Shown: positions 3,459 through 24,339, counted from the first letter of the stretch. The stretch: DNA of 32,000 nucleotides from a virus (IMGVR_UViG_3300045988_175865:60001-92000), one strand, 5' to 3'. Translations and numbers: made by a program. Notes: a model not told the origin generated them from the letters alone.

Positions 3459-3872
3459 TTATATCCATGTCTTTAAAGCTTCCAAAAAAGCTGATTCTAA
3501 AGCTTCTTCATATGTATTATAATCTACTCCACTTGCATCTATACTATGAGGAGGTCTTACAATTTTCTTAGAAGGATCTATCTGAATATCAACGATTTTA
3601 TATGTCCAATATCCATGAATAGTGGGAACTATTATAATATGTATCTTATGAATATCTCTTAACCATTTTTGAAGTTTAGATTGAGTTGGAGCTAAATAAT
3701 AATTATCTGTAGGATCATAAAACTTACAATTCCAAAGCACTCCTTTTTCATCATAACAAGGGCTACAATTTACATATCCTAATTTTGGAAATAGTTTAGA
3801 TATTCTATTTCCATCCATATAATGTTTTTCCTTTGCAAGTTTAGCAGTATCAAAAGTAATATGTGATTCCAT
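3459..3872 (-). CDS. paralog family A protein (AKLAKEK-GY ... WLRD ... EAL..AL)
   Basis: ORF track, start trimmed to ATG 3872 (TAATG overlap with the upstream stop); similar to 16697..17095 and 21563..21931. Confidence 0.65.
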   Translation of the reverse strand: MESHITFDTAKLAKEKHYMDGNRISKLFPKLGYVNCSPCYDEKGVLWNCKFYDPTDNYYLAPTQSKLQKWLRDIHKIHIIIVPTIHGYWTYKIVDIQIDPSKKIVRPPHSIDASGVDYNTYEEALESAFLEALKTWI

Positions 3873-4219
3873 TATTCCCAAGGTAAAATTTTCTGAGTTA
3901 TTCTTTTATAGTTATTTAATATTCCTAAGATGTTTGCTCGACCTACAGGATTTGCAGATTGACTTGCAAACTGTGGAAGGACATATCCTTCATCTATACA
4001 TTTATCTACAATATACTTGGCTATATCGTATCCAGATTTTTCCTCTCCTAAATCATGATCGAGACAAATTGCATAAGGTCATTCTTTTTCAAGGAAGTCA
4101 ATAGCTTCTTGATAAGACTGAGCCCATACAACTTTACAATTTCTGCCAATTGGACTAAAATTCATCCAATCATCTTCCATTGGATTACGAGCATCATCTA
4201 TCCAAAAAAGTGTTTTCAT
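3872..4219 (-). CDS. receiver-like domain protein (cyclic-phosphate-processing receiver type), 115 aa, one in-frame TGA
   Basis: Manual code-4 translation MKTLFWIDDARNP...EKE(TGA=W)PYAICLDHDLGEEKSGYDIAKYIV...; TGA at 4079-4081; missed by the standard-code ORF track. Confidence 0.7.
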
Positions 4220-4221
4220 AA

Positions 4222-4467
4222 TCATCTAATTCTTAAATGAGAAAGTAAATTAAAAACTATTAATATAATACAAGCCATAGTTGGAATAAAGTTTAAAGGA
4301 GTCCAAATGAGTATTATAAAGACAAAGCTACTAATATATTTATCCTCAGTATAGTATAAATACATATCTCCTAGAGTAGTTCCTTCTTTAGATTTTATCC
4401 TCCAATAAACGTAGAGAATAATATGATTAATAATTATACATACAAACCAGCAATATACAAATTCCAT
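4222..4467 (-). CDS. small membrane protein, paralog family B
   Basis: ORF track 81 aa; C-terminal half aligns with 5995..6402; apparent stop is TGA, giving 8 more codons under code 4. Confidence 0.6.
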   Translation of the reverse strand: MEFVYCWFVCIIINHIILYVYWRIKSKEGTTLGDMYLYYTEDKYISSFVFIILIWTPLNFIPTMACIILIVFNLLSHLRIR

Positions 4468-7081: not shown

Positions 7082-7233
7082 GTACATTTTATATATTTAT
7101 TACAGATAACTCTGCAAAAGTATTTGCAGAAATATTATAAATTAATTAGTCGAGAATGATAGTAATGCTCTATCCCCTAGAAATCCCAAATTTCTCGTGC
7201 TACTTCCACACCCCATTCTCGATAAACTATCCT

Positions 7234-7467
7234 TTATTCAAGGATAGCGTTTAATTTTGCAAGAACACCTTCGTTTTTCTTACGAATGTTTTCAAGAGCT
7301 TCTTTTTCAGCTTGAGCTGCTTTGATTTCCTCGTCTCTTGCTGCAATTTCTAATTCTGCAGAAGCATTTACTTCTTTAAGACCATCAATTGCAGTTTTGA
7401 AAGCATTTAAAACATTGTCTACTTTCTTAGACAGATCTACAGATGTTTTACTTTTTGAATTAAACAT
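7234..7467 (-). CDS. coiled-coil protein, 77 aa
   Basis: ORF track; Ala/Glu/Lys-rich heptad-like sequence. Confidence 0.6.
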   Translation of the reverse strand: MFNSKSKTSVDLSKKVDNVLNAFKTAIDGLKEVNASAELEIAARDEEIKAAQAEKEALENIRKKNEGVLAKLNAILE

Positions 7468-7524
7468 GTTTAATAGTTTTTTAAATTAATGCTGTGAGGA
7501 AATTTTTGGGACCCCCAATAATAG

Positions 7525-7596
7525 TGAACCATATGAGACTCGAACCCCTCTATTTCCTTGCAAAGGAAATGTGCTCGCCTTTACACTACATGGCCC
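7525..7596 (-). tRNA. tRNA-Ala(UGC)
   Basis: Acceptor GGGCCAT/ATGGTTC including the G3.U70 Ala identity pair; anticodon arm TTTCC-TTTGCAA-GGAAA; one mismatch in the T stem. Confidence 0.8.
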
Positions 7597-7603
7597 AAAA
7601 TAC

Positions 7604-7789
7604 TTAAAGTTTAATACGAAATTGTCTTATTTTATTACATATTTTACAACGCTGTATATAAACTTTTTCAACTTTAACTGGGCGACTTTGATAGTCATTT
7701 TCAAACACCTTTTTTAATTTTTCTTCAACTGTCTCCCAATCATGTACATGAAATTTCAATTCAAACCATTTCTTTATAAGTTCTAACAT
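7604..7789 (-). CDS. small Cys-containing protein, 61 aa
   Basis: ORF track; C-terminal CKICNK motif. Confidence 0.55.
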   Translation of the reverse strand: MLELIKKWFELKFHVHDWETVEEKLKKVFENDYQSRPVKVEKVYIQRCKICNKIRQFRIKL

Positions 7790-7816: not shown

Positions 7817-7898
7817 AGCCTCCTGTCGGACTCGAACCGACGCGTTCAAATGAAGACGGATTACAAAACCGTTGCAGTCGCCGCTGTGCCAAGGAGGC
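7817..7898 (-). tRNA. tRNA with class II-like 14-nt variable region; anticodon UGU (Thr) by 7-nt loop geometry, isotype uncertain
   Basis: Acceptor GCCTCCT/AGGAGGC, 3-bp D stem, anticodon arm ACGGT-TTTGTAA-TCCGT with a U31.U39 mismatch, T arm GTCGG-TTCGAGT-CCGAC. Confidence 0.6.
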
Positions 7899-8014
7899 TT
7901 ATAAACACTATCGTAGTTTGCACGTCTGATTTTTATTGCCACAGAAACTTCATACAAATGATCAATTTATATGTTAAGAGTTGTTACGCCGCTAATGTCA
8001 AATTTAGAAATAAC

Positions 8015-8893
8015 TTATAATGACATAAATTGGTTATAGTTATCCTTGTATCCTATAGAAGTATTCACAAGAAGCTCGCCATGCATGCTTCTACCAGGCA
8101 TTGGCACCATAAAGTCATTTCCATATATGTTAGTTAAAACACTTAAATATACTTCTGGAGCAGGAAACATTCCTCACTCAAATTTAAGGTAAACCTTATT
8201 GTTATAGTCTCTAGCGTTTCTAAGACTTTGTATCTTATTTGGAAATGTAAGATTACCAAATGACTCTGTGGAGAGTACATTATATCGTTGTCGTAGCTCT
8301 TGATATTTTTCTCTAAGATATAAAAGTCTAGATGTGTTTTCCTTAGAAGAATCATAACATTGTATTCTTGTTTTTACAGCCAGTGCTTCTAGTTTAATTA
8401 AGTGAAGCTGGTGCATAAACTTTTGTCTCTCAACTAGATCATCTGGAACATTATCAAAAGGACATATATCTATAAAGATCCCTTGGTTAAAGGTAAAATG
8501 ACCTTCTAAATCCTTTTTGTGAATACATGTTGTGTCACTTCTTCTTAACTTCGTACAGCAATAAAAGGTACTGTCTGTTCAGTCATTTTGAACAAAATAT
8601 GGATAATTCAACTCTTTAACTGCACACTCTAAAAATCTATCATAGTCTGTTCTAGGCATAGCAATATCAATATCATCGTCCCATGGAATAAATCCACCAT
8701 GTCTGACAGCACCAAGTAATGTTCCTCCATCTAAATAGTGCTTCAAATGATATTTATCACAGATATTTTTAAACTGTCATAGCAAATCTAGCTCAACTCC
8801 TCAAAGTTCTTTTCTTTCTTTAGACACCAAGAATCCATTTTTTACTTCTGCTTCAAAAAAGTTATCTGGTAATTTAATATTTAAGTTTACCAT
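8015..8893 (-). CDS. licD: LicD-family phosphotransferase, 292 aa, four in-frame TGA codons
   Basis: Code-4 translation gives the LicD core [32 protein letters not shown] and C-terminal [25 protein letters not shown] at 8801, 8777, 8579 and 8174; the ORF track only shows fragments. Confidence 0.85.
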
Positions 8894-9554
8894 TAAATAA
8901 AAATTTAGCCAACTCTAAATCATCAGGACTTGTAATTTTAAAATTCATAAGTTCTCCCGAGATATATAAGCATTTATTTCCATTATGCTCATATAAGTCA
9001 GGTAAAGTCTGATAATTATCTATATTTTTAATCTTTGTAATTATATTATAAAGGCTTCTAAGCATAAAAGTTTCAGGAGTCTGTAAGATAGCAATTGGCT
9101 CCGTTCTTACTCCAGGAACATGTAACGAACTAAGATCTTTTAAAGTGCTAACTGTTGGAATGTATGGAACAACAGCCGAATTATTAGAATCACAAGAAGA
9201 CAAACATCTTGTAATTAAATTTGAAGTGAAAAAAGGTCTAACAGAATCATGAAACATAATTTTTTCAATAGAAGGATAGTAAGTCATTATGTATTCAAGA
9301 CCAGCAATTCTAGATCTTAAGCATGAGTACCCTCCTTCTATAATTTTGATATAAGAAAATGGAAAAAGCTTTCGAAGAATAGGAATATATTCAGGTAGAG
9401 TAACTATAACAATTATGTTAAACAGTCTTAACCTAACAAACTTTTCAACAGTCAAATATACTATAGGATGTCCATTAATATCTATAAACTGCTTAGGAAT
9501 ATTCATTCCTACCCTAGTTCCTTTTCCAGCAGCATTAATAACTAAGGCATTCAT
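8874..9554 (-). CDS. IspD/TarI-like sugar-phosphate cytidylyltransferase
   Basis: ORF track 226 aa; N-terminal NAAGKGTRVGMNIPKQF matches the AAGxGxR...PKQ signature; its 3' end overlaps the licD start. Confidence 0.85.
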   Translation of the reverse strand: MNALVINAAGKGTRVGMNIPKQFIDINGHPIVYLTVEKFVRLRLFNIIVIVTLPEYIPILRKLFPFSYIKIIEGGYSCLRSRIAGLEYIMTYYPSIEKIMFHDSVRPFFTSNLITRCLSSCDSNNSAVVPYIPTVSTLKDLSSLHVPGVRTEPIAILQTPETFMLRSLYNIITKIKNIDNYQTLPDLYEHNGNKCLYISGELMNFKITSPDDLELAKFLFNGKLKY

Positions 9555-9598
9555 ACACTTAATCTTATACTCTTTTTCTTTTAATACTAGTTAATACA

Positions 9599-9712
9599 CT
9601 AAAATAAAGATTCATTTCTATTCCTAAAGTAAAGGATAGTACATAGTACTATTACCACAAACCAGATAAAAAGAAATAGTAATATTAGACAGTTAATTAG
9701 TACTGTTGCCAT
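9599..9712 (-). CDS. small membrane protein, 37 aa
   Basis: Internal ATG of ORF 9599..9850; the upstream part of that ORF overlaps tRNA-Gln and is discarded. Confidence 0.35.
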   Translation of the reverse strand: MATVLINCLILLFLFIWFVVIVLCTILYFRNRNESLF

Positions 9713-9757
9713 AGTATTATTTATTATATGTGAGAAATATTTATTTAATTTTAATAG

Positions 9758-9832
9758 TTGCTCGTTAAAGATTCGAACTTTAACTTTCACGTTCAAAGCG
9801 TGACGTGCACAAACCAAGTACACCAACGAGCA
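9758..9832 (-). tRNA. tRNA-Gln(UUG)
   Basis: Acceptor TGCTCGT/ACGAGCA (U1-A72 as in bacterial tRNA-Gln), anticodon arm TCACG-CTTTGAA-CGTGA, T arm TAAAG-TTCGAAT-CTTTA. Confidence 0.85.
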
Positions 9833-9960
9833 GAAGCAAATCCGCAGCAAGAATCCACCACAAATATAAAGATAAAAGTCAATATAACCAAATATTTGTA
9901 CACTTATTTCTATAATTTGTACAAATTTTTGAGATTACTATTCAGTATAATAACTAACAC

Positions 9961-10320
9961 TTACTTTTGCTTCTCTTTTAAATAAGTATAGATAATAATG
10001 ATCATTAAAGTGATAACAATCATCACGAAGAAATATGTTAATACTGTAACAAAGAAGTTTATCCCTAATATGTTATTAACAAAGTGTAATAAATAGCACA
10101 CTAGAACACAATACAACAAAATTCTATGATAAATATAAAATTTGAATGTAAGAGATAAAACAATGAGACCTATTAGTACTACCATAACTGTTACCAAATC
10201 TACACAACTAATAATTACTGTAGAAATTGTATAGTAACGTAGTAGTATTTTAAATAATATGTTTAGTGCTAGTAAGAAAGGTGCAAAACGAATGAATATT
10301 AAACTAAGTTTCTTTAACAT
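9961..10320 (-). CDS. multi-pass membrane protein, 119 aa
   Basis: ORF track; strongly hydrophobic throughout. Confidence 0.6.
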   Translation of the reverse strand: MLKKLSLIFIRFAPFLLALNILFKILLRYYTISTVIISCVDLVTVMVVLIGLIVLSLTFKFYIYHRILLYCVLVCYLLHFVNNILGINFFVTVLTYFFVMIVITLMIIIIYTYLKEKQK

Positions 10321-10436
10321 TCTATAAAATAAAATATCAAATTAATAATTAATATAATAATCACCCAGCTAATTATTGTTAATAATCTCGATAAACACCC
10401 TAATCTAGTAAGAATATCATGTGATGTAAGTTTCAT
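10314..10436 (-). CDS. small membrane protein, 40 aa
   Basis: Manual translation MKLTSHDILTRLGCLSRLLTIISWVIIILIINLIFYFIEC; overlaps the next start by 7 nt. Confidence 0.4.
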   Translation of the reverse strand: MKLTSHDILTRLGCLSRLLTIISWVIIILIINLIFYFIEC

Positions 10437-10438
10437 TA

Positions 10439-10699
10439 TTAAAATTCAGGTTCAAACATACTAGACGCCCATGACCAATAGCCACCATCTTCTTCTATAG
10501 AATACAAATAGCCATCATCAGGAAGTCTACCGTCTTGCATTTTATGCCAATATTTAGCTTTACTAATAGTGCATACTCTTCCTCCATATTCTGTAAGCAT
10601 ATTTTCTGCAAACCAGTACGAATAATCGAGATCCTTACATCCTGGATCATACTTTTCCTTTATTAAAACATTATCTCCAATTTTGTATAATGATTCCAT
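10439..10699 (-). CDS. hypothetical protein, 86 aa
   Basis: ORF track; ATG start, TAA stop. Confidence 0.65.
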   Translation of the reverse strand: MESLYKIGDNVLIKEKYDPGCKDLDYSYWFAENMLTEYGGRVCTISKAKYWHKMQDGRLPDDGYLYSIEEDGGYWSWASSMFEPEF

Positions 10700-10717
10700 A
10701 AGTTAAAAAGATTTTTG

Positions 10718-11138
10718 TGTGCCTGATGAGAATTGAACTCATGTCCATTCAACTATTAATAATAATTTTATTTACATGCTAGGTTATTTTATTCTCCTAT
10801 TCCGAAAAATAACAAAACGTATCAGATAGTTTTTATCTTATCTCCTACAACTTATCTGAAATAACTCGGTTCTATAATAGTAGTTAGTAATGATTAACTT
10901 ACATCATCTGCATTAATCTATACAGAAAATCTTTGTCTATTATTTCTCCAGACTTGGATAGCTTAAGCTGCAAAAGCTACTTGAGCACGCATAGGAGTTG
11001 CAAGAGGCATAACCTTGTTAGCCATCTTACGTACAGTGTTCTTAGCGTTTATTTTTTGGTCCAGTTGTTAAAGAAGTTATACCAGCTCCTGCATGAATTG
11101 TTATCAACTATCTTGAATGTCAAAAACCTGGCAGGCCC
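10718..11138 (-). ncRNA. ssrA: tmRNA-like RNA (ssrA-like), 421 nt, tag ANKVMPLATPMRAQVAFAA
   Basis: 5' GGGCCUG-CC-AGGUUUUUGAC-AUUCAA and 3' UUGAAU-GGAC-AUGAG-UUCAAUU-CUCAU-CAGGCAC-A reproduce the tmRNA tRNA-like domain layout; internal frame 11022..10963 ends GCU UUU GCA GCU UAA (E. coli: GCU UUA GCA GCU UAA). Confidence 0.75.
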
Positions 11139-11261
11139 AAAGACAGGGCAGTTTATACTTATACCCTAGAAGTGGTCCATAATAGCTAAAGTGTTTAATG
11201 CTCTAATTATATAGCAGCGACTAGTATACTGTTATACTTTTCTTGTAACTTCAAGAACTAT

Positions 11262-11286
11262 TACTAAAACTTCAATGTGAAGTTCC
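11262..11286 (-). terminator. intrinsic terminator-like hairpin
   Basis: Minus sense GGAACTTCA-CAT-TGAAGTT followed by TTAGTAA; 7-bp stem; weak U tract. Confidence 0.4.
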
Positions 11287-11455
11287 TAAAAGCCACTTGA
11301 GTATTTTTTGGGTTCACTCAAGAATACCGTGTTTTATTGTCGGGATCAAACAACCAAACTACCACCTTTCTATATACAAAGGCAAACTCATACTATCTGG
11401 CGTAACCCGTTACTATTATTTATATACCGCTAAGTAACCTAATGCGGTTTACTTT

Positions 11456-12046
11456 TTATCCTTTAAAGTATAATAATGTTGGATTATTCTTATGCACATC
11501 AATATTCGGATATCGTTTTGCAAAAGTTGACATATCAAAAGGAGTTGTAATTAAATGAAAACCATTTTTAGTAGGAATCAAAGCCTTAAACTTTGAACCA
11601 ATAGGTTGACATTCTCGTTCAATAAACAGTAAGATATTATTTACCGCACGATTATCTGTAGGTCCATCAATATCAACAACCCATGTTTTATCGTCTTTAT
11701 TACATGTTGATCCACAAGCATGATCATAACAACGATAAACTTCTTCCATCTGATCATATCGTATTCGTTCAGCAAGATTCTCTAAACAAACTAACGCTAC
11801 ATCTTTATAGCTTCGCTTGTTTAAATGAATATAAGCACGTGCTTTAAATATAGAACACATTTGCTTAATTTCCTTTTTCTTGCCTTCGAAATATTCAAGA
11901 GAACGTATACAATAGGAACGAACTAAACGGTTATTTACTCCTATATCGGGATTATCCTTTGATCTTTGTATAATCTGAAGATAATAAAAATCATCTTTAG
12001 ATTCAAATTTCAAAAGACTTTTAATTAAGTCAAAATTATCTACCAT
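11456..12046 (-). CDS. hypothetical protein, 196 aa, with weak primase-polymerase (AEP)-like motifs
   Basis: ORF track; VVDIDG (DxD-like) then KNGFHLIT (sGxGxH-like) about 35 aa later; motif resemblance only. Confidence 0.55.
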   Translation of the reverse strand: MVDNFDLIKSLLKFESKDDFYYLQIIQRSKDNPDIGVNNRLVRSYCIRSLEYFEGKKKEIKQMCSIFKARAYIHLNKRSYKDVALVCLENLAERIRYDQMEEVYRCYDHACGSTCNKDDKTWVVDIDGPTDNRAVNNILLFIERECQPIGSKFKALIPTKNGFHLITTPFDMSTFAKRYPNIDVHKNNPTLLYFKG

Positions 12047-12125
12047 TTTCTTTAATAAGTAAATTTAATTTGCATATACAAAATATTTTTATTATATTTG
12101 ATTTAATTATTAAATCAAATAAATC

Positions 12126-12503
12126 ATGAATATATTAATAAAAACATGTACGGTTTGTAAAGAATCAAAAGCCTTAGATGAGTTTCCAAAGCATCCACAG
12201 CATAAAGATGGATACAATAGTGTTTGTAAAAAATGTATGCAAAAAAGCAATAAAAAATGTAGATCAAATAAAAAGATTCATTTTATAAAGAAAATGGGAG
12301 GAGAATGTACAAATTGTAAAATAAAATTGACTGAAAATAATTGACCAATATTTGATTTTCATCATATAGATCCTTCCCAAAAAGAAGTTTCTTGATCAAC
12401 ATTAAGAAATTGAAGTAATGATAAAATTGAAAAAGAATTAAACAAATGCACTTTACTATGTGCTAATTGTCATAGACTTTTACACGCAAAGACTAAAGAT
12501 TAA
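12126..12503 (+). CDS. HNH endonuclease, 125 aa, three in-frame TGA codons
   Basis: N-terminal CxxC...CxxC, then under code 4 ENN(W)PIFDFHHIDP...VS(W)STLRN(W)SNDKIEKELNKCTLLCANCHRLLH; TGA at 12342, 12393 and 12411; only plus-strand gene in the left arm. Confidence 0.85.
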
Positions 12504-12544
12504 CTTTAGTCTTTTATTTTTATCTATTACTATTATTCTAGTCA

Positions 12545-12586
12545 ATAAAAAATAGAGCCTACACCTCCGATCAAGGAGATGTAGGC
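12545..12586 (-). terminator. intrinsic terminator (usable in both directions)
   Basis: GCCTACA-CCTCC-GATCAA-GGAG-A-TGTAGGC hairpin; on the minus sense it is followed by TCTATTTTTTATT. Confidence 0.65.
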
Positions 12587-12708
12587 AATGTTTATCGTCT
12601 TTTAAGAGCTTCATAATTTTTATATGGGCCCCTCCTCTTAGTAAAGGTTTTTCCTTTACCGTGTTAGAGGAAACTATAGTGTTCTACTATAGAGACTACA
12701 CCTTTGAT

Positions 12709-12888
12709 TTAGCAGGTAGGCTTTTCTGCTTTGTAATTAGGTAAGTATAGAGCATTATGCCTTACTCTACGGTAAACAGTTCTATACGAAAGTTCTCCTG
12801 TCTTTTTATCAAAAACAGGGTTGCCTTCTTCATCTACTTTAACTTCTTTAAAGGGCATTGTAATAGCCTTCATTTTAGGATGTGCCAT
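12709..12888 (-). CDS. small protein, 59 aa
   Basis: Manual translation MAHPKMKAITMPFKEVKVDEEGNPVFDKKTGELSYRTVYRRVRHNALYLPNYKAEKPTC; one codon below the ORF-track cutoff; 9 nt downstream of the SPFH gene stop. Confidence 0.55.
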   Translation of the reverse strand: MAHPKMKAITMPFKEVKVDEEGNPVFDKKTGELSYRTVYRRVRHNALYLPNYKAEKPTC

Positions 12889-12897
12889 CTGTGTTAT

Positions 12898-14091
12898 TTA
12901 ATTATTTTTACCTTGTTTTTTAGCAATATCAAGGAGCATATTCAGTCCTACAGCATCCATAGGATTAGCAGATGCTCCTTCTTTACCTCCAATAATCATT
13001 ACTTCAGGAACCCAACGAACATTTGAGTTTGCTAATGCCTGAGCTACACCAATTGTGGTTTCTTTATCAATTGTTGCTCTTTGCAATGGGTCCAATCCAG
13101 CAAGTACTTTAGCTCGTGCTGCTGCAGCTTCTGCCATGCCCTGAGCTTCAATACGTTTTGCATCTTCCTTTGCCTTTAAAGCAGAAAGACGAGCTACTTC
13201 ATATTCCTGTTCAGCCTTAGTAACCTCTACAGCCTTAATTTTCTCCTGTTCCCACTTAGCCTTCATAGCAAGTGCCTTACCCTCCTCTTCAGCACGAATT
13301 GCCTCTTGAGCAGCAGCAGCTGACTTCGCACGACTAGTTTGAATAAGCATATTTGCTTCCTGTTGCTGAGCAATCTGCCTATTTACTTTATCAGAATATG
13401 CAATCTTTGATACAGCTACCTGACCAATCTCTAGTCCATAATAAGCAAATGGGGAGGATTCACTACGCTTGTAACCTCCTGCTGCTAATGAGTCAGGAAT
13501 TAGTGTAGCTACATTAATAACTTTCTTTTCTCCAGTAATTGCATCAAGTACTTCGCTACGCTTGATTGCAGTTTTGTAGACACCATTATTTAACTGATCA
13601 GTAATATATTCAATCAAGTCATTCTTCTTCTCTGCATACGATTCAAAAGCAGACATCAGAGGACCTGAAGCATAAATTACCTTAGTAACAGTCGGACGAA
13701 CAAGATCATTCATTAGACGATCCATACCATTATAATCAGTCTGAATACGAGCGAGGTATTTAGGGTCAGTAGGAAGTTTTACACGAAGTGATCCATAAAT
13801 CATACCATCTGAAGCATCATTGAAGATTACAGGAATAGGTTTTCCCTGCTGATCGCCAGCCTCAGAGTCAGATCCGAACCACAACTGTTGAGTTTTATAG
13901 TAAGTAGTGGTTTTGCCCCACCACTGCCAGTGAAAACCAGGACTAGTCCAGTATTCCATGTTACCAGTAAACGGATACTGATTGACTACAATCGTCTCAT
14001 TCTTTACATCTTCCCCGATTTTACCCAGAGAAACAACACAGAAAATAGCAAATACTACTACAAGAGCAGCAACAATTTTTTTGAAATTCAT
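12898..14091 (-). CDS. SPFH/band-7 (flotillin/YqiK-like) membrane protein
   Basis: ORF track 397 aa; N-terminal TM helix, globular domain, then a long Ala/Glu/Lys-rich coiled region typical of flotillin-like SPFH proteins. Confidence 0.7.
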   Translation of the reverse strand: MNFKKIVAALVVVFAIFCVVSLGKIGEDVKNETIVVNQYPFTGNMEYWTSPGFHWQWWGKTTTYYKTQQLWFGSDSEAGDQQGKPIPVIFNDASDGMIYGSLRVKLPTDPKYLARIQTDYNGMDRLMNDLVRPTVTKVIYASGPLMSAFESYAEKKNDLIEYITDQLNNGVYKTAIKRSEVLDAITGEKKVINVATLIPDSLAAGGYKRSESSPFAYYGLEIGQVAVSKIAYSDKVNRQIAQQQEANMLIQTSRAKSAAAAQEAIRAEEEGKALAMKAKWEQEKIKAVEVTKAEQEYEVARLSALKAKEDAKRIEAQGMAEAAAARAKVLAGLDPLQRATIDKETTIGVAQALANSNVRWVPEVMIIGGKEGASANPMDAVGLNMLLDIAKKQGKNN

Positions 14092-14114
14092 CTTTAGATT
14101 TTTAAATTACACAA

Positions 14115-14270
14115 TTACCTTTTAAAAAAATAATAAAATGGAATTATTACCTTCCATGTAATTTTACGATTAGTAATTTTACATGTATCTAATAACTGAA
14201 GAGTCATTAGAGTATAGTAAAGAATAAAGGAAATACTAACTAATAGTATAACAAAACGATAAAACCACAT
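14115..14270 (-). CDS. small membrane protein, 51 aa
   Basis: Manual translation MWFYRFVILLVSISFILYYTLMTLQ...; TAATG overlap with the upstream stop. Confidence 0.45.
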   Translation of the reverse strand: MWFYRFVILLVSISFILYYTLMTLQLLDTCKITNRKITWKVIIPFYYFFKR

Positions 14271-14551
14271 TACTTTAAATTACTTTTAATGTTATCTCTT
14301 GTATCACAGTAGATTTTAATTTCTTGGGGGAAAACATGAATGATAGTAGTATCTTTCATTTCCTTAAATGTAGAATTAATAATCCTCTCTAGGGAGTCTA
14401 TCTGTAAAACTAGAGATTTTATATTCTCTTGGTTCTGTCTAAAAAAGGTTTCACTGCGTGTATTATCTATACAAAAAAATGCAAAACTTATTAGGAAAGA
14501 AGTTCCAAGAAGAAGTAAGACAACTCCAATTTTTATAGATTTATCTGTCAT
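14270..14551 (-). CDS. membrane-anchored protein, 93 aa
   Basis: ORF track; N-terminal TM segment. Confidence 0.6.
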   Translation of the reverse strand: MTDKSIKIGVVLLLLGTSFLISFAFFCIDNTRSETFFRQNQENIKSLVLQIDSLERIINSTFKEMKDTTIIHVFPQEIKIYCDTRDNIKSNLK

Positions 14552-14774
14552 AACTAAGAATTAGCATATTAACTATTTAAGTTAAGATAAGGATTAGATT
14601 TTTATTACAAAAATATATACCAGCTGTGTAACACAATTTTTGCCTGATTGGTACTAGCATTTACCATACACTTCCTTAACCAATATCAGAAACTATATGT
14701 ACAGGTATATAAACAATAAATAGCTTCTGTAAGTGTACAACCTATTGCACAGATACTTTCACTATCTTATTATT

Positions 14775-14862
14775 GTGATTGGATAGGATTCAAACCTAAT
14801 GTTTCCCTATTGTACAACAAGGCGAGTTTCATCACATTCTCCTCTCAATCAACCCCCAATCT
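14775..14862 (-). other. degenerate tRNA-like element (T arm and partial acceptor only)
   Basis: TTAGG-TTTGAAT-CCTAT T-arm-like hairpin; 6 of 7 acceptor pairs (AGATTGG/CCAATCA); no convincing D or anticodon arm. Confidence 0.3.
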
Positions 14863-15203
14863 TATTGAAAACAATAAGACGCCCTTGTCTTGTCTGGGAG
14901 ACTTTCATAAGGGTACTTTTTAAATAAAAAGAGGTAATCCCATAAGTATTATTCTACCTCCGCCTCATCTATAAAATCATAGATTATCAGCAGCCTCTGC
15001 CAAGGCATCCCTGTTTTTCTATGAACTGGCAGATTCATAAATTATCAGGATAAACAGATTATTAAATTTCTTTAATATTTTCGTTTTTATATTTCTTCTG
15101 AGTAGCAATCTTTATTATTCCATCCTCGTTTACTAGTTTCTCTTTTCATTCTTAGCTATAACTTTATTAGTATATTACTAATATAATGCAGAAAGTAGTG
15201 TCA

Positions 15204-23905: not shown

Positions 23906-23948
23906 AAAACAAGTTGCAAATATAGCACTTAATTATTGAATATGCAAA

Positions 23949-24339
23949 TTATTTACAACTATGATAAACATGAAAAGGTCCACAATGAATTTTACCATTT
24001 ACAGAAGTTTCTCTTCTATAAATAATTTGAAAAACATTTGGATGATCCTTTATATAGTCTTCGACTTGCTGAACTGAAGAGAATGTTGCCAATATTTCCC
24101 ATTTGCCTTTGCTCCATGTTGACGTACATGAACTCACGCTATCCCGCAAAATCTTTATATTACTATAAAGCTTTATCCTTAAAAGACCGCTAGGTAGATC
24201 GACGCCTAATAAGTATTCACCTTCCTTTGCTCACTTTCTTAAGGACGTTAGGTTCCTAATTATACTCTTAAAAGTGGAAGAGTTTATTTAAAAAAAGATA
24301 AACGAGCTTATTTAGTTCATAATGATAGTATACTTCCAT
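23949..24339 (-). CDS. hypothetical protein needing a +1 shift (or an indel correction) near 24287-24296
   Basis: ORF track 23949..24149 has no ATG; its frame stays open 46 codons upstream (one TGA). The ATG at 24339 opens a 23-codon frame that is +1 relative to it across T7-AAA. Confidence 0.45.

Follow-up and report, generated by a model that had tools for sequence, protein, structure and literature searches.

A phage-borne one-piece tmRNA gene that has lost its alanine identity pair, probably a recently disabled allele

The 32,000-nucleotide stretch IMGVR_UViG_3300045988_175865:60001-92000 (hereafter the window; positions are counted from its first letter) carries on its minus strand a gene for transfer-messenger RNA (tmRNA, ssrA). 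By descent the gene is a homologue of the one-piece bacterial tmRNA, and it lacks a feature needed for function. The G3.U70 wobble pair, which together with the discriminator base A73 is described as the key to recognition by alanyl-tRNA synthetase (AlaRS) and as kept by every ssrA sequence (PMC3968760), is replaced by G3-C70 next to a G2.A71 mismatch. With a probability of roughly two thirds, we regard the window tmRNA as a recently disabled, loss-of-function allele of a dispensable phage gene.

The tmRNA gene, its tag and its family

ARAGORN calls a tmRNA of 422 nt at 10717-11138 (-). The Rfam model RF00023 matches 10715-11138 (-) from end to end (model positions 1-374) with 50.0 bits against a gathering threshold of 47, and the E value of 4.6e-17, obtained in a search of the whole window, places the match far beyond chance. 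Both scans bear out the initial annotation, which had been made from the sequence alone and described a phage-borne tmRNA-like gene on this strand; its layout of acceptor strands, D-loop analogue, helix 2 and T arm also stands. A two-piece tmRNA is ruled out, since the gene is colinear and the permuted model RF04321 remains below its gathering threshold (19 bits against 47, E 0.1). The RNA starts with GGGCCUGCCAGGUUUUUGACAUUCAA and ends with UUGAAUGGACAUGAGUUCAAUUCUCAUCAGGCACAC, and its parts are the following:

10717-11138 (-): whole tmRNA (ssrA) gene, nt 1-422 (ARAGORN; RF00023; syntenic homologues of 73-99 bits)
11132-11138 (-): 5' acceptor strand GGGCCUG, nt 1-7 (sequence; pairs 4:69 and 5:68 covary in the family)
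11120-11131 (-): D-loop analogue CCAGGUUUUUGA, nt 8-19 (Rfam alignment; the family's version of the GGNUUCGAC motif)
11091-11119 (-): 5' strand of helix 2, nt 20-48, CAUUCAA ... GUUGAUAACAAUU-CAUGC (pairing and compensatory changes)
11057-11090 (-): pseudoknot 1, nt 49-82, with stem 1 AGGAG/CUUCU and stem 2 UGGU/ACCA (read by eye across subfamilies)
10963-11046 (-): tag reading frame, nt 93-176, AKNTVRKMANKVMPLATPMRAQVAFAA and UAA (ARAGORN; Rfam alignment; open in all subfamilies)
10959-10979 (-): helix 5-like hairpin UAGCUU/AAGCUA, nt 160-180, with the UAA stop inside (direct reading of the sequence)
10780-10958 (-): counterpart of pseudoknots 2 to 4, A+U-rich, with local hairpins such as UCUGUAU/AUGCAGA (Rfam alignment, low posterior probability)
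10746-10779 (-): 3' strand of helix 2, nt 360-393, GCAUG ... AAUUAUUAUUAAU ... UUGAAUG (pairing counts)
10726-10742 (-): T arm AUGAG-UUCAAUU-CUCAU, nt 397-413 (compensatory changes in 4 of 5 pairs, 100% of cells paired in the family)
10719-10725 (-): 3' acceptor strand CAGGCAC, nt 414-420, followed by the discriminator A73 at 10718 (sequence)
10720-10721 (-): derived dinucleotide, C418 (position 70, at 10721) and A419 (position 71, at 10720) (comparison with relatives)

The acceptor stem comprises G1-C72, G2.A71, G3-C70, C4-G69, C5-G68, U6-A67 and G7-C66, i.e. standard pairs at six of the seven positions, the exception being G.A at 2:71. From the alanine identity set, A73 is present and G3.U70 is absent. 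A further mismatch, C.A at C39, lies in helix 2 of the window haplotype. The mature RNA presumably ends with A73 and a CCA added post-transcriptionally. The absence of an encoded CCA had been listed among the oddities of the gene; the sequence agrees, and the feature is unremarkable because CCA is likewise missing from all 11 tRNA genes called in the window.

The resume codon is a GCU at nt 93 (11046-11044), directly after CAAAAAAUAAAC, a placement in which ARAGORN, the Rfam alignment and the relatives agree. The encoded tag AKNTVRKMANKVMPLATPMRAQVAFAA has 27 amino acids, and its frame ends GCU UUU GCA GCU UAA. An internal frame with this AFAA ending had been read correctly in the initial annotation, where it was started at a GCU at nt 117; the correct site lies eight codons upstream, since the nt-117 GCU reads ACU or AUC in relatives. 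Consequently, the in-frame AUG thought to precede the tag is its eighth codon (Met8), and the tag, which had been called anomalously long, is long without being exceptional, as tags of 8-35 residues have been reported (PMC3968760). In all subfamilies the frame opens with GCU or GCA right after a conserved CAAA(A/C)AAUAAAC and stays open for 26-29 codons, to end in AFAA, VLAA, AIAA, LMAA, LIAA or LMVA before UAA or UAG. The N-terminal part of the tag is conserved as AK[KN].[FV].KM.NKV, with ANNIFSRIINKV in the most distant group, and codons differ synonymously within the frame (CGU/CGC, UCU/UCG, ACU/ACA, CCU/CCA, CAA/CAG, GCU/GCC). Conservation of the peptide together with synonymous change argues that the tag is translated, at least in canonical alleles.

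Relatives were taken from IMG/VR via two proteins of the window, an SPFH protein and a 196-amino-acid open reading frame (ORF) beside the tmRNA. The tmRNA occurs at the syntenic position in many related gut phage contigs of 100-175 kb, with Rfam scores of 72.9 to 99.1 bits (72.9 for the sister allele, 82-99 for the other relatives). Covariation was counted on a MAFFT alignment of 13 sequences, over the helices that could be defined. Standard pairs occupy 86.3% of the helix cells, against 34.5-47.6% with slid partners, and the covariation score is 0.382, against 0.189 in column shuffles (0 of 500 reach the observed value) and at most 0.094 with slid partners. Both-side changes occur at acceptor pairs 4:69 and 5:68. 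The segment H2a of helix 2 is 97.8% paired with compensatory changes in 5 of 7 pairs, and another segment, H2c, is 100% paired with 2 of 5. In the D-loop analogue G11, G12, U13, U15-17, G18 and A19 are invariant. The compensatory pairs in acceptor, helix 2 and T arm show that the two halves of the gene are co-conserved among homologous phage contigs, as the initial annotation had proposed to check.

In the same alignment H2b and pseudoknot 1 of the L006 subgroup are shifted out of register, so that pairing is understated there, and for this reason pseudoknot 1 was read by eye. Stem 1 appears as AGGAG/CUUCU, AGGAG/CUCCU or CGAGU/ACUCG, and stem 2 as UGGU/ACCA, UGAUA/UAUCA or UUGA/UCAA; on inspection, both stems are kept despite sequence change across at least three subfamilies. 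From the set of four pseudoknots expected of a tmRNA, the first is thus recovered by visible covariation, and the region of the second to fourth aligns with low posterior probability and displays local hairpins. A related phage tmRNA of 618 nt (L118 6386-7003 (-) and L119 903-1520 (-)), with an Rfam score of 66.6 bits and missed by ARAGORN, is about 190 nt longer than its closest relatives. Judged by eye, the extra sequence follows the tag stop, and it matches no Rfam intron family at threshold.

Phages and islands that integrate into ssrA leave ssrA fragments in mobile elements (PMC4131195, PMC9004378), but the idea that the locus is such an attachment-site remnant (a 3' ssrA fragment), or a chance tRNA-like resemblance, can be dismissed with near certainty, given the full-length model match with both acceptor strands, helix 2, pseudoknot 1 and the tag frame, the covariation between the 5' and 3' halves, and the lack of an integrase domain among the 44 window ORFs scanned.

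The acceptor change and the fate of the gene in sister lineages

The two acceptor oddities pointed out in the initial annotation, G.A at 2:71 and G-C at 3:70, are real: both are in the sequence and recur in contigs from at least seven different sample accessions, found by exact-protein look-ups. The tmRNA in ERZ28619108, ERZ28616149, ERZ28644809, ERZ18534333, ERZ27267225, ERZ913495 and ERZ28579255 is identical to that of the window, including CA at positions 70 and 71 (the CA allele). Eight other contigs with the same 422-nt tmRNA type have UC at these positions (the UC allele). The CA allele sits on one linked haplotype (A37, C39, U358, C418, A419), and over 4 kb the CA contigs diverge from the window by 0.02-0.10% and the UC contigs by 0.4-1.3%. 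G2-C71 and G3.U70 are kept in all other relatives examined (more than 30 phage tmRNAs), including the sisters diverged by 0.4-1.3%. The outgroup stems GGGGAUG/CAUCUCC, GGGGCUG/CAGCUCC, GGGCCUG/CAGGUCC and GGGGGUG/CACCUCC all possess G3.U70. The CA dinucleotide is real and derived (U70C71 to C70A71), and it marks a single, recently expanded, near-clonal lineage. Hence the altered identity pair is not the designed or family-wide trait that the initial annotation could be taken to imply.

A sequencing or assembly artefact hiding a canonical tmRNA is very improbable. The change did look private at first: the exact 28-mer of the tmRNA 3' end has no match in IMG/VR, and a degenerate scan of IMG/VR and a metagenome collection with the T arm and the 3' strand, positions 70 and 71 left free, returned 4 IMG/VR and 11 metagenome contigs, all 15 with UC (TC in DNA). 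The suspicion of a private change or an error, suggested by these UC-only scans, was overturned by the identical CA in the assemblies from at least seven accessions, on a consistent linked haplotype.

Folded as a mini-helix, the UC allele has a canonical acceptor stem of 7 bp at -20.5 kcal/mol. The CA allele reaches -16.8 kcal/mol, and pairs 1 and 2 are lost in the centroid structure. With Rfam the CA allele scores 50.0 bits against 72.9 for the sister allele, a cost of about 23 bits. On paper, no G.U pair is restored by shifting the acceptor register, bulging A71 or pairing with the 5' leader, the 3' strand CAGGCAC being without U. The tRNA-Ala(UGC) gene of the phage at 7524-7596 (-) keeps G3.U70, which indicates that the standard AlaRS rule applies in this genome and gives no sign of an altered alanine system. 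The same tRNA also has G2.U71 and a weak Rfam score of 35.7 bits.

Sister lineages present further defects. L008 (12456-12861) and L002 (12939-13344) possess chimeric genes, in which the first approximately 35 nt are window-like (GGGCCUG...) and the rest resembles L001 (...CAUCUCC). In consequence, C.C and C.U mismatches stand at 4:69 and 5:68, and a C.A mismatch stands in H2a. Both chimeras are missed by ARAGORN and still found by Rfam. In L002, moreover, the T loop is mutated (GUUCGUCGCC) and stem 2 of pseudoknot 1 contains a mismatch. In L004 (12836-13098), 143 nt are deleted, covering pseudoknots 2 to 4 and the 3' strand of H2c. Neither the tmRNA nor the adjacent 196-amino-acid ORF is present in L003. 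The tmRNA gene is accordingly mosaic, with internal recombination breakpoints that create mismatches in the acceptor, H2a and pseudoknot 1. The genomes are strongly mosaic as well: window 7891-15148 is 98.7% identical to L028 over 7.3 kb, neighbouring segments are 88-94% identical to it or unalignable, and the closest relative differs by segment. Chimeric, T-loop-mutated, deleted and absent copies make the gene look dispensable and prone to decay, a pattern that would fit an accessory gene useful in some backgrounds and easily lost.

Phage background and TGA recoding

The window has 31.6% G+C and is transcribed nearly entirely from the minus strand. The proteins recognised comprise an IMPDH/GMP-reductase-like enzyme, an HD-domain protein, IspD, LicD, an SPFH/Band-7 protein, a ParB-like protein and two DnaD/replication-initiator-like proteins; domains of SmpB, AlaRS, release factors and integrases were not found among the 44 ORFs scanned. 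The best match of the SPFH protein is its counterpart in a crAss001-type Bacteroides phage (48% identity), and the 196-amino-acid ORF has its best matches, at about 40% identity, in Cellulophaga phage phi17:2 and the Prevotella Lak phages. These affinities suggest a Bacteroidota-type gut phage, whose family, including crAss-like status, we leave open. By exact-protein look-ups the locus lies on contigs of about 166 kb from many human-gut assemblies, and the index of the assembly collection lists the two flanking ORFs in 836 and 1128 blocks. A scan for sigma-70 promoters and intrinsic terminators, which does not cover Bacteroidota promoters, returned nothing above expectation, with 4 promoter-like sites where 5.2 would be expected and not one terminator.

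Partial reassignment of TGA to a sense codon, as in code 4, is supported by two domains that continue across in-frame TGAs, in line with the TGA-recoded phage assumed in the initial annotation. LicD at 8015-8893 (-) contains four in-frame TGAs and, with these read as Trp, gives one unbroken Pfam LicD match over the whole profile (1-227 of 227, E 2.3e-39). One in-frame TGA also lies within a cREC_REC domain at 3872-4225 (-). Public gene calls present LicD as a protein of 292 amino acids in some assemblies and as pieces of 55, 80 and 51 amino acids in others. Most window genes lack in-frame TGA and encode Trp by TGG, which fits the published partial recoding biased toward late genes (bioRxiv 10.1101/2021.08.26.457843). 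No suppressor tRNA with a UCA anticodon was found by ARAGORN (12 calls) or Rfam (14 calls) in this 32-kb window of a genome of about 166 kb. One further ORF, 16697-17362 (-), has a single in-frame TGA and no domain match.

Besides the 11 tRNA genes called by ARAGORN, the window contains two odd tRNA-like genes recognised by Rfam only, at 23801-23905 (-) and 23537-23665 (-), with 34.7 and 32.8 bits and variable-arm insertions of about 32 and 59 nt, respectively. Judged by eye their anticodon loops are irregular, apparently 8 nt long in the former (GUGGCAAC) and 6 or 7 nt in the latter (CUAAUA(U)); neither carries a UCA anticodon. A matching tRNA of 105 nt (34.7 bits) lies at L014 3669-3773, in a stretch 99.5% identical to window 23683-24105. 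In the L006-type relatives L009, L010, L011, L015, L017-L020, L022, L024, L029, L030 and L032, ARAGORN reports a conserved 'tRNA-???' with a two-base anticodon (tg) and an irregular anticodon loop, located around 7150-7650 of the locus (at 792-863 in L017). Self-cleaving Pistol ribozymes (RF02679) are present a few kb from the tRNA/tmRNA region in the relatives L005 (1161-1230 (+), 63.4 bits) and L014 (1627-1696 (+), 61.0 bits); the window has none at threshold.

Probable loss of function and comparison with known systems

In canonical alleles, the RNA would be transcribed together with the surrounding minus-strand genes, processed by host RNase P and completed by the host CCA-adding enzyme. 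Host AlaRS would then charge it via G3.U70 and A73, and host SmpB and EF-Tu would bring the charged RNA to stalled ribosomes, where a phage-specific, degron-type tag of 26-29 amino acids with a hydrophobic-Ala-Ala end would be appended and the ribosome released. The phage may gain extra rescue capacity at a time when mRNA decay during infection and UGA read-through make non-stop complexes, suppression of UGA sending ribosomes past UGA stops to the 3' ends of messages. Every tag frame is closed by UAA or UAG and none by UGA, a faint hint compatible with rescue after UGA read-through.

With the tandem step from U70C71 to C70A71, the window lineage lost the alanine identity pair, and pair 2:71 came open. 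We infer that the CA allele is uncharged or poorly charged from the loss of G3.U70, the open 2:71 pair, the frayed end of the stem and the lack of any other fitting identity set. An RNA with G1-C72, G2.A71, G3-C70 and A73 that lacks both an anticodon and a long variable arm is not known to fit any anticodon-independent identity set, and on this ground re-charging by another synthetase was rejected. Most likely, the CA allele is not aminoacylated, or only poorly, and is hence inactive in trans-translation. The question of the initial annotation, which synthetase charges this RNA, would then probably be answered with none for the CA allele and with host AlaRS for the canonical alleles. The analysis shows the identity of the gene, its conservation and covariation in the family, the derived state of the change, its recurrence in several sample accessions and the decay of the gene in sister lineages; expression, lack of charging, dispensability and benefit to the phage are inferred.

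Several observations weigh against a disabled allele. The CA lineage is found in at least seven sample accessions, apparently from several projects according to the cohort-style labels of the assemblies, which means that the allele does no harm at least and that neutrality is not distinguished from a new function; the contig sample is moreover biased by the exact-protein look-ups. There is zero diversity within the 422 nt of the CA haplotype, by which relaxed constraint after the mutation cannot be judged. The rest of the RNA (tag, pseudoknot 1, helix 2, T arm) is intact, and G.A next to G3-C70 might permit residual charging. In older in vivo suppressor work, McClain and colleagues reportedly found that alanine acceptance can also be supported by other irregularities of the helix at 3:70.

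It is accordingly conceivable, though on balance unlikely, that the CA tmRNA is functional despite the loss of G3.U70, either charged by AlaRS via the neighbouring G.A or acting as a decoy that titrates SmpB. The former version, in which AlaRS, possibly aided by SmpB, accepts the G2.A71 irregularity in place of the G.U wobble and trans-translation takes its usual course, would agree with the spread of the lineage over several sample accessions, the intact functional elements, the retained A73 and the mispairs other than G.U at 3:70 that are said to keep alanine acceptance in vivo. We consider it rather improbable. The irregularity sits at 2:71 and not at 3:70, where a Watson-Crick pair has formed, and the more than 30 related phage tmRNAs all possess G3.U70 and G2-C71. 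In the mini-helix fold the stem end loses about 3.7 kcal/mol of stability, and G3.U70 reportedly does not vary among ssrA sequences (PMC3968760).

In the other version, which we hold to be more doubtful still, the uncharged RNA binds host SmpB, perhaps also EF-Tu or the ribosome, and inhibits host trans-translation, or it has another regulatory role. An RNA consisting of the tRNA-like domain (TLD) only, chargeable or not, reportedly inhibits tmRNA strongly, perhaps by titrating SmpB, as PMC4131195 summarises the work of Mao 2009, and mycobacteriophage DS6A carries a TLD-only gene (PMC4131195). The SmpB-binding region of the window allele (T arm, D-loop analogue, helix 2) is intact, and host SmpB would be needed, no SmpB having been found among the 44 window ORFs scanned. 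Yet a decoy would have no use for the retained tag frame, the single clonal haplotype gives no sign of selection for the change, and the sister lineages show plain decay by deletion and loss, a better fit to dispensability.

Phage tmRNAs are known but functionally unexplored, and the present family is abundant in human-gut metagenomes. Its near-isogenic phages form a natural allelic series (canonical, loss of the identity pair, chimeric stems, mutated T loop, deletion, absence) from which one could learn whether a phage draws any fitness benefit from its tmRNA. The series could also probe a possible link between extra ribosome rescue and TGA recoding, since UGA read-through should lead to non-stop ribosomes, and a possible interference of uncharged tmRNA with the host. 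For annotation, caution is advised: phage 'tmRNA' calls of ARAGORN and Rfam include probably dead copies, and ARAGORN misses chimeras that Rfam detects. If the decoy or charging based on G.A were true, the G3.U70 rule of ssrA would have its first natural exception in the CA allele, with canonical and variant alleles in phages less than 1% apart as a ready comparison.

Like Escherichia coli SsrA and other one-piece RF00023 members, the window gene has an end-paired acceptor stem, a T arm with a GUUCNANNC-type loop, a D-loop analogue, a long helix 2, a first pseudoknot just upstream of the Ala resume codon, A73, a hydrophobic-Ala-Ala tag end and a stop codon within a hairpin. It differs from SsrA in G3-C70 and G2.A71 (SsrA: G3.U70 and G2-C71), in a tag of 27 amino acids (10-11 in SsrA) with the conserved N-terminal part AK.....M.NKV instead of AANDENYALAA, in the A+U-rich and poorly alignable region of pseudoknots 2 to 4, in the CCA that is not encoded, and in being phage-borne with no smpB found in the window.

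Phage tmRNAs are established, with 402 cases in 18,146 phage genomes (PMC9004378), a share of about 2.3% given for sequenced phages, and examples in huge phages (PMC7162821), in mycobacteriophages and in Bacillus phage G (PMC4131195); the known systems are those of the mycobacteriophage Bxz1 group, Bacillus phage G and huge phages, and the two-piece tmRNAs of pelagiphages and Melnitz. The window gene shares with them the accessory ssrA in a large, tRNA-rich genome and a presumed dependence on host SmpB and AlaRS. In contrast to them it belongs to a human-gut, low-GC, partly TGA-recoded phage group with Bacteroidota-phage affinities, and canonical, defective, chimeric and deleted natural alleles are documented side by side; unlike the pelagiphage and Melnitz tmRNAs, it is one-piece. 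A circulating lineage that has lost G3.U70 is unusual. A blastn search of the tmRNA locus against 50,697 GenBank phage records gave no match, and no literature link between tmRNA and this phage group specifically was found.

Two further systems invite comparison. Like the TLD-only remnant of DS6A and the engineered TLD RNAs (Mao 2009, as described in PMC4131195), the CA RNA may bind SmpB without tagging; in contrast to the remnant it is full-length, keeps its tag frame intact and is altered in no more than the identity pair and the pair next to it, and inhibition is purely hypothetical. The degenerate ssrA genes of the reduced endosymbionts Carsonella and Hodgkinia (PMC4131195) are likewise instances of natural tmRNA decay where trans-translation is dispensable or relaxed, but those genes are chromosomal and in long-term decay, whereas the lesion of the window allele would be a very recent, one-step event in a viral accessory copy.

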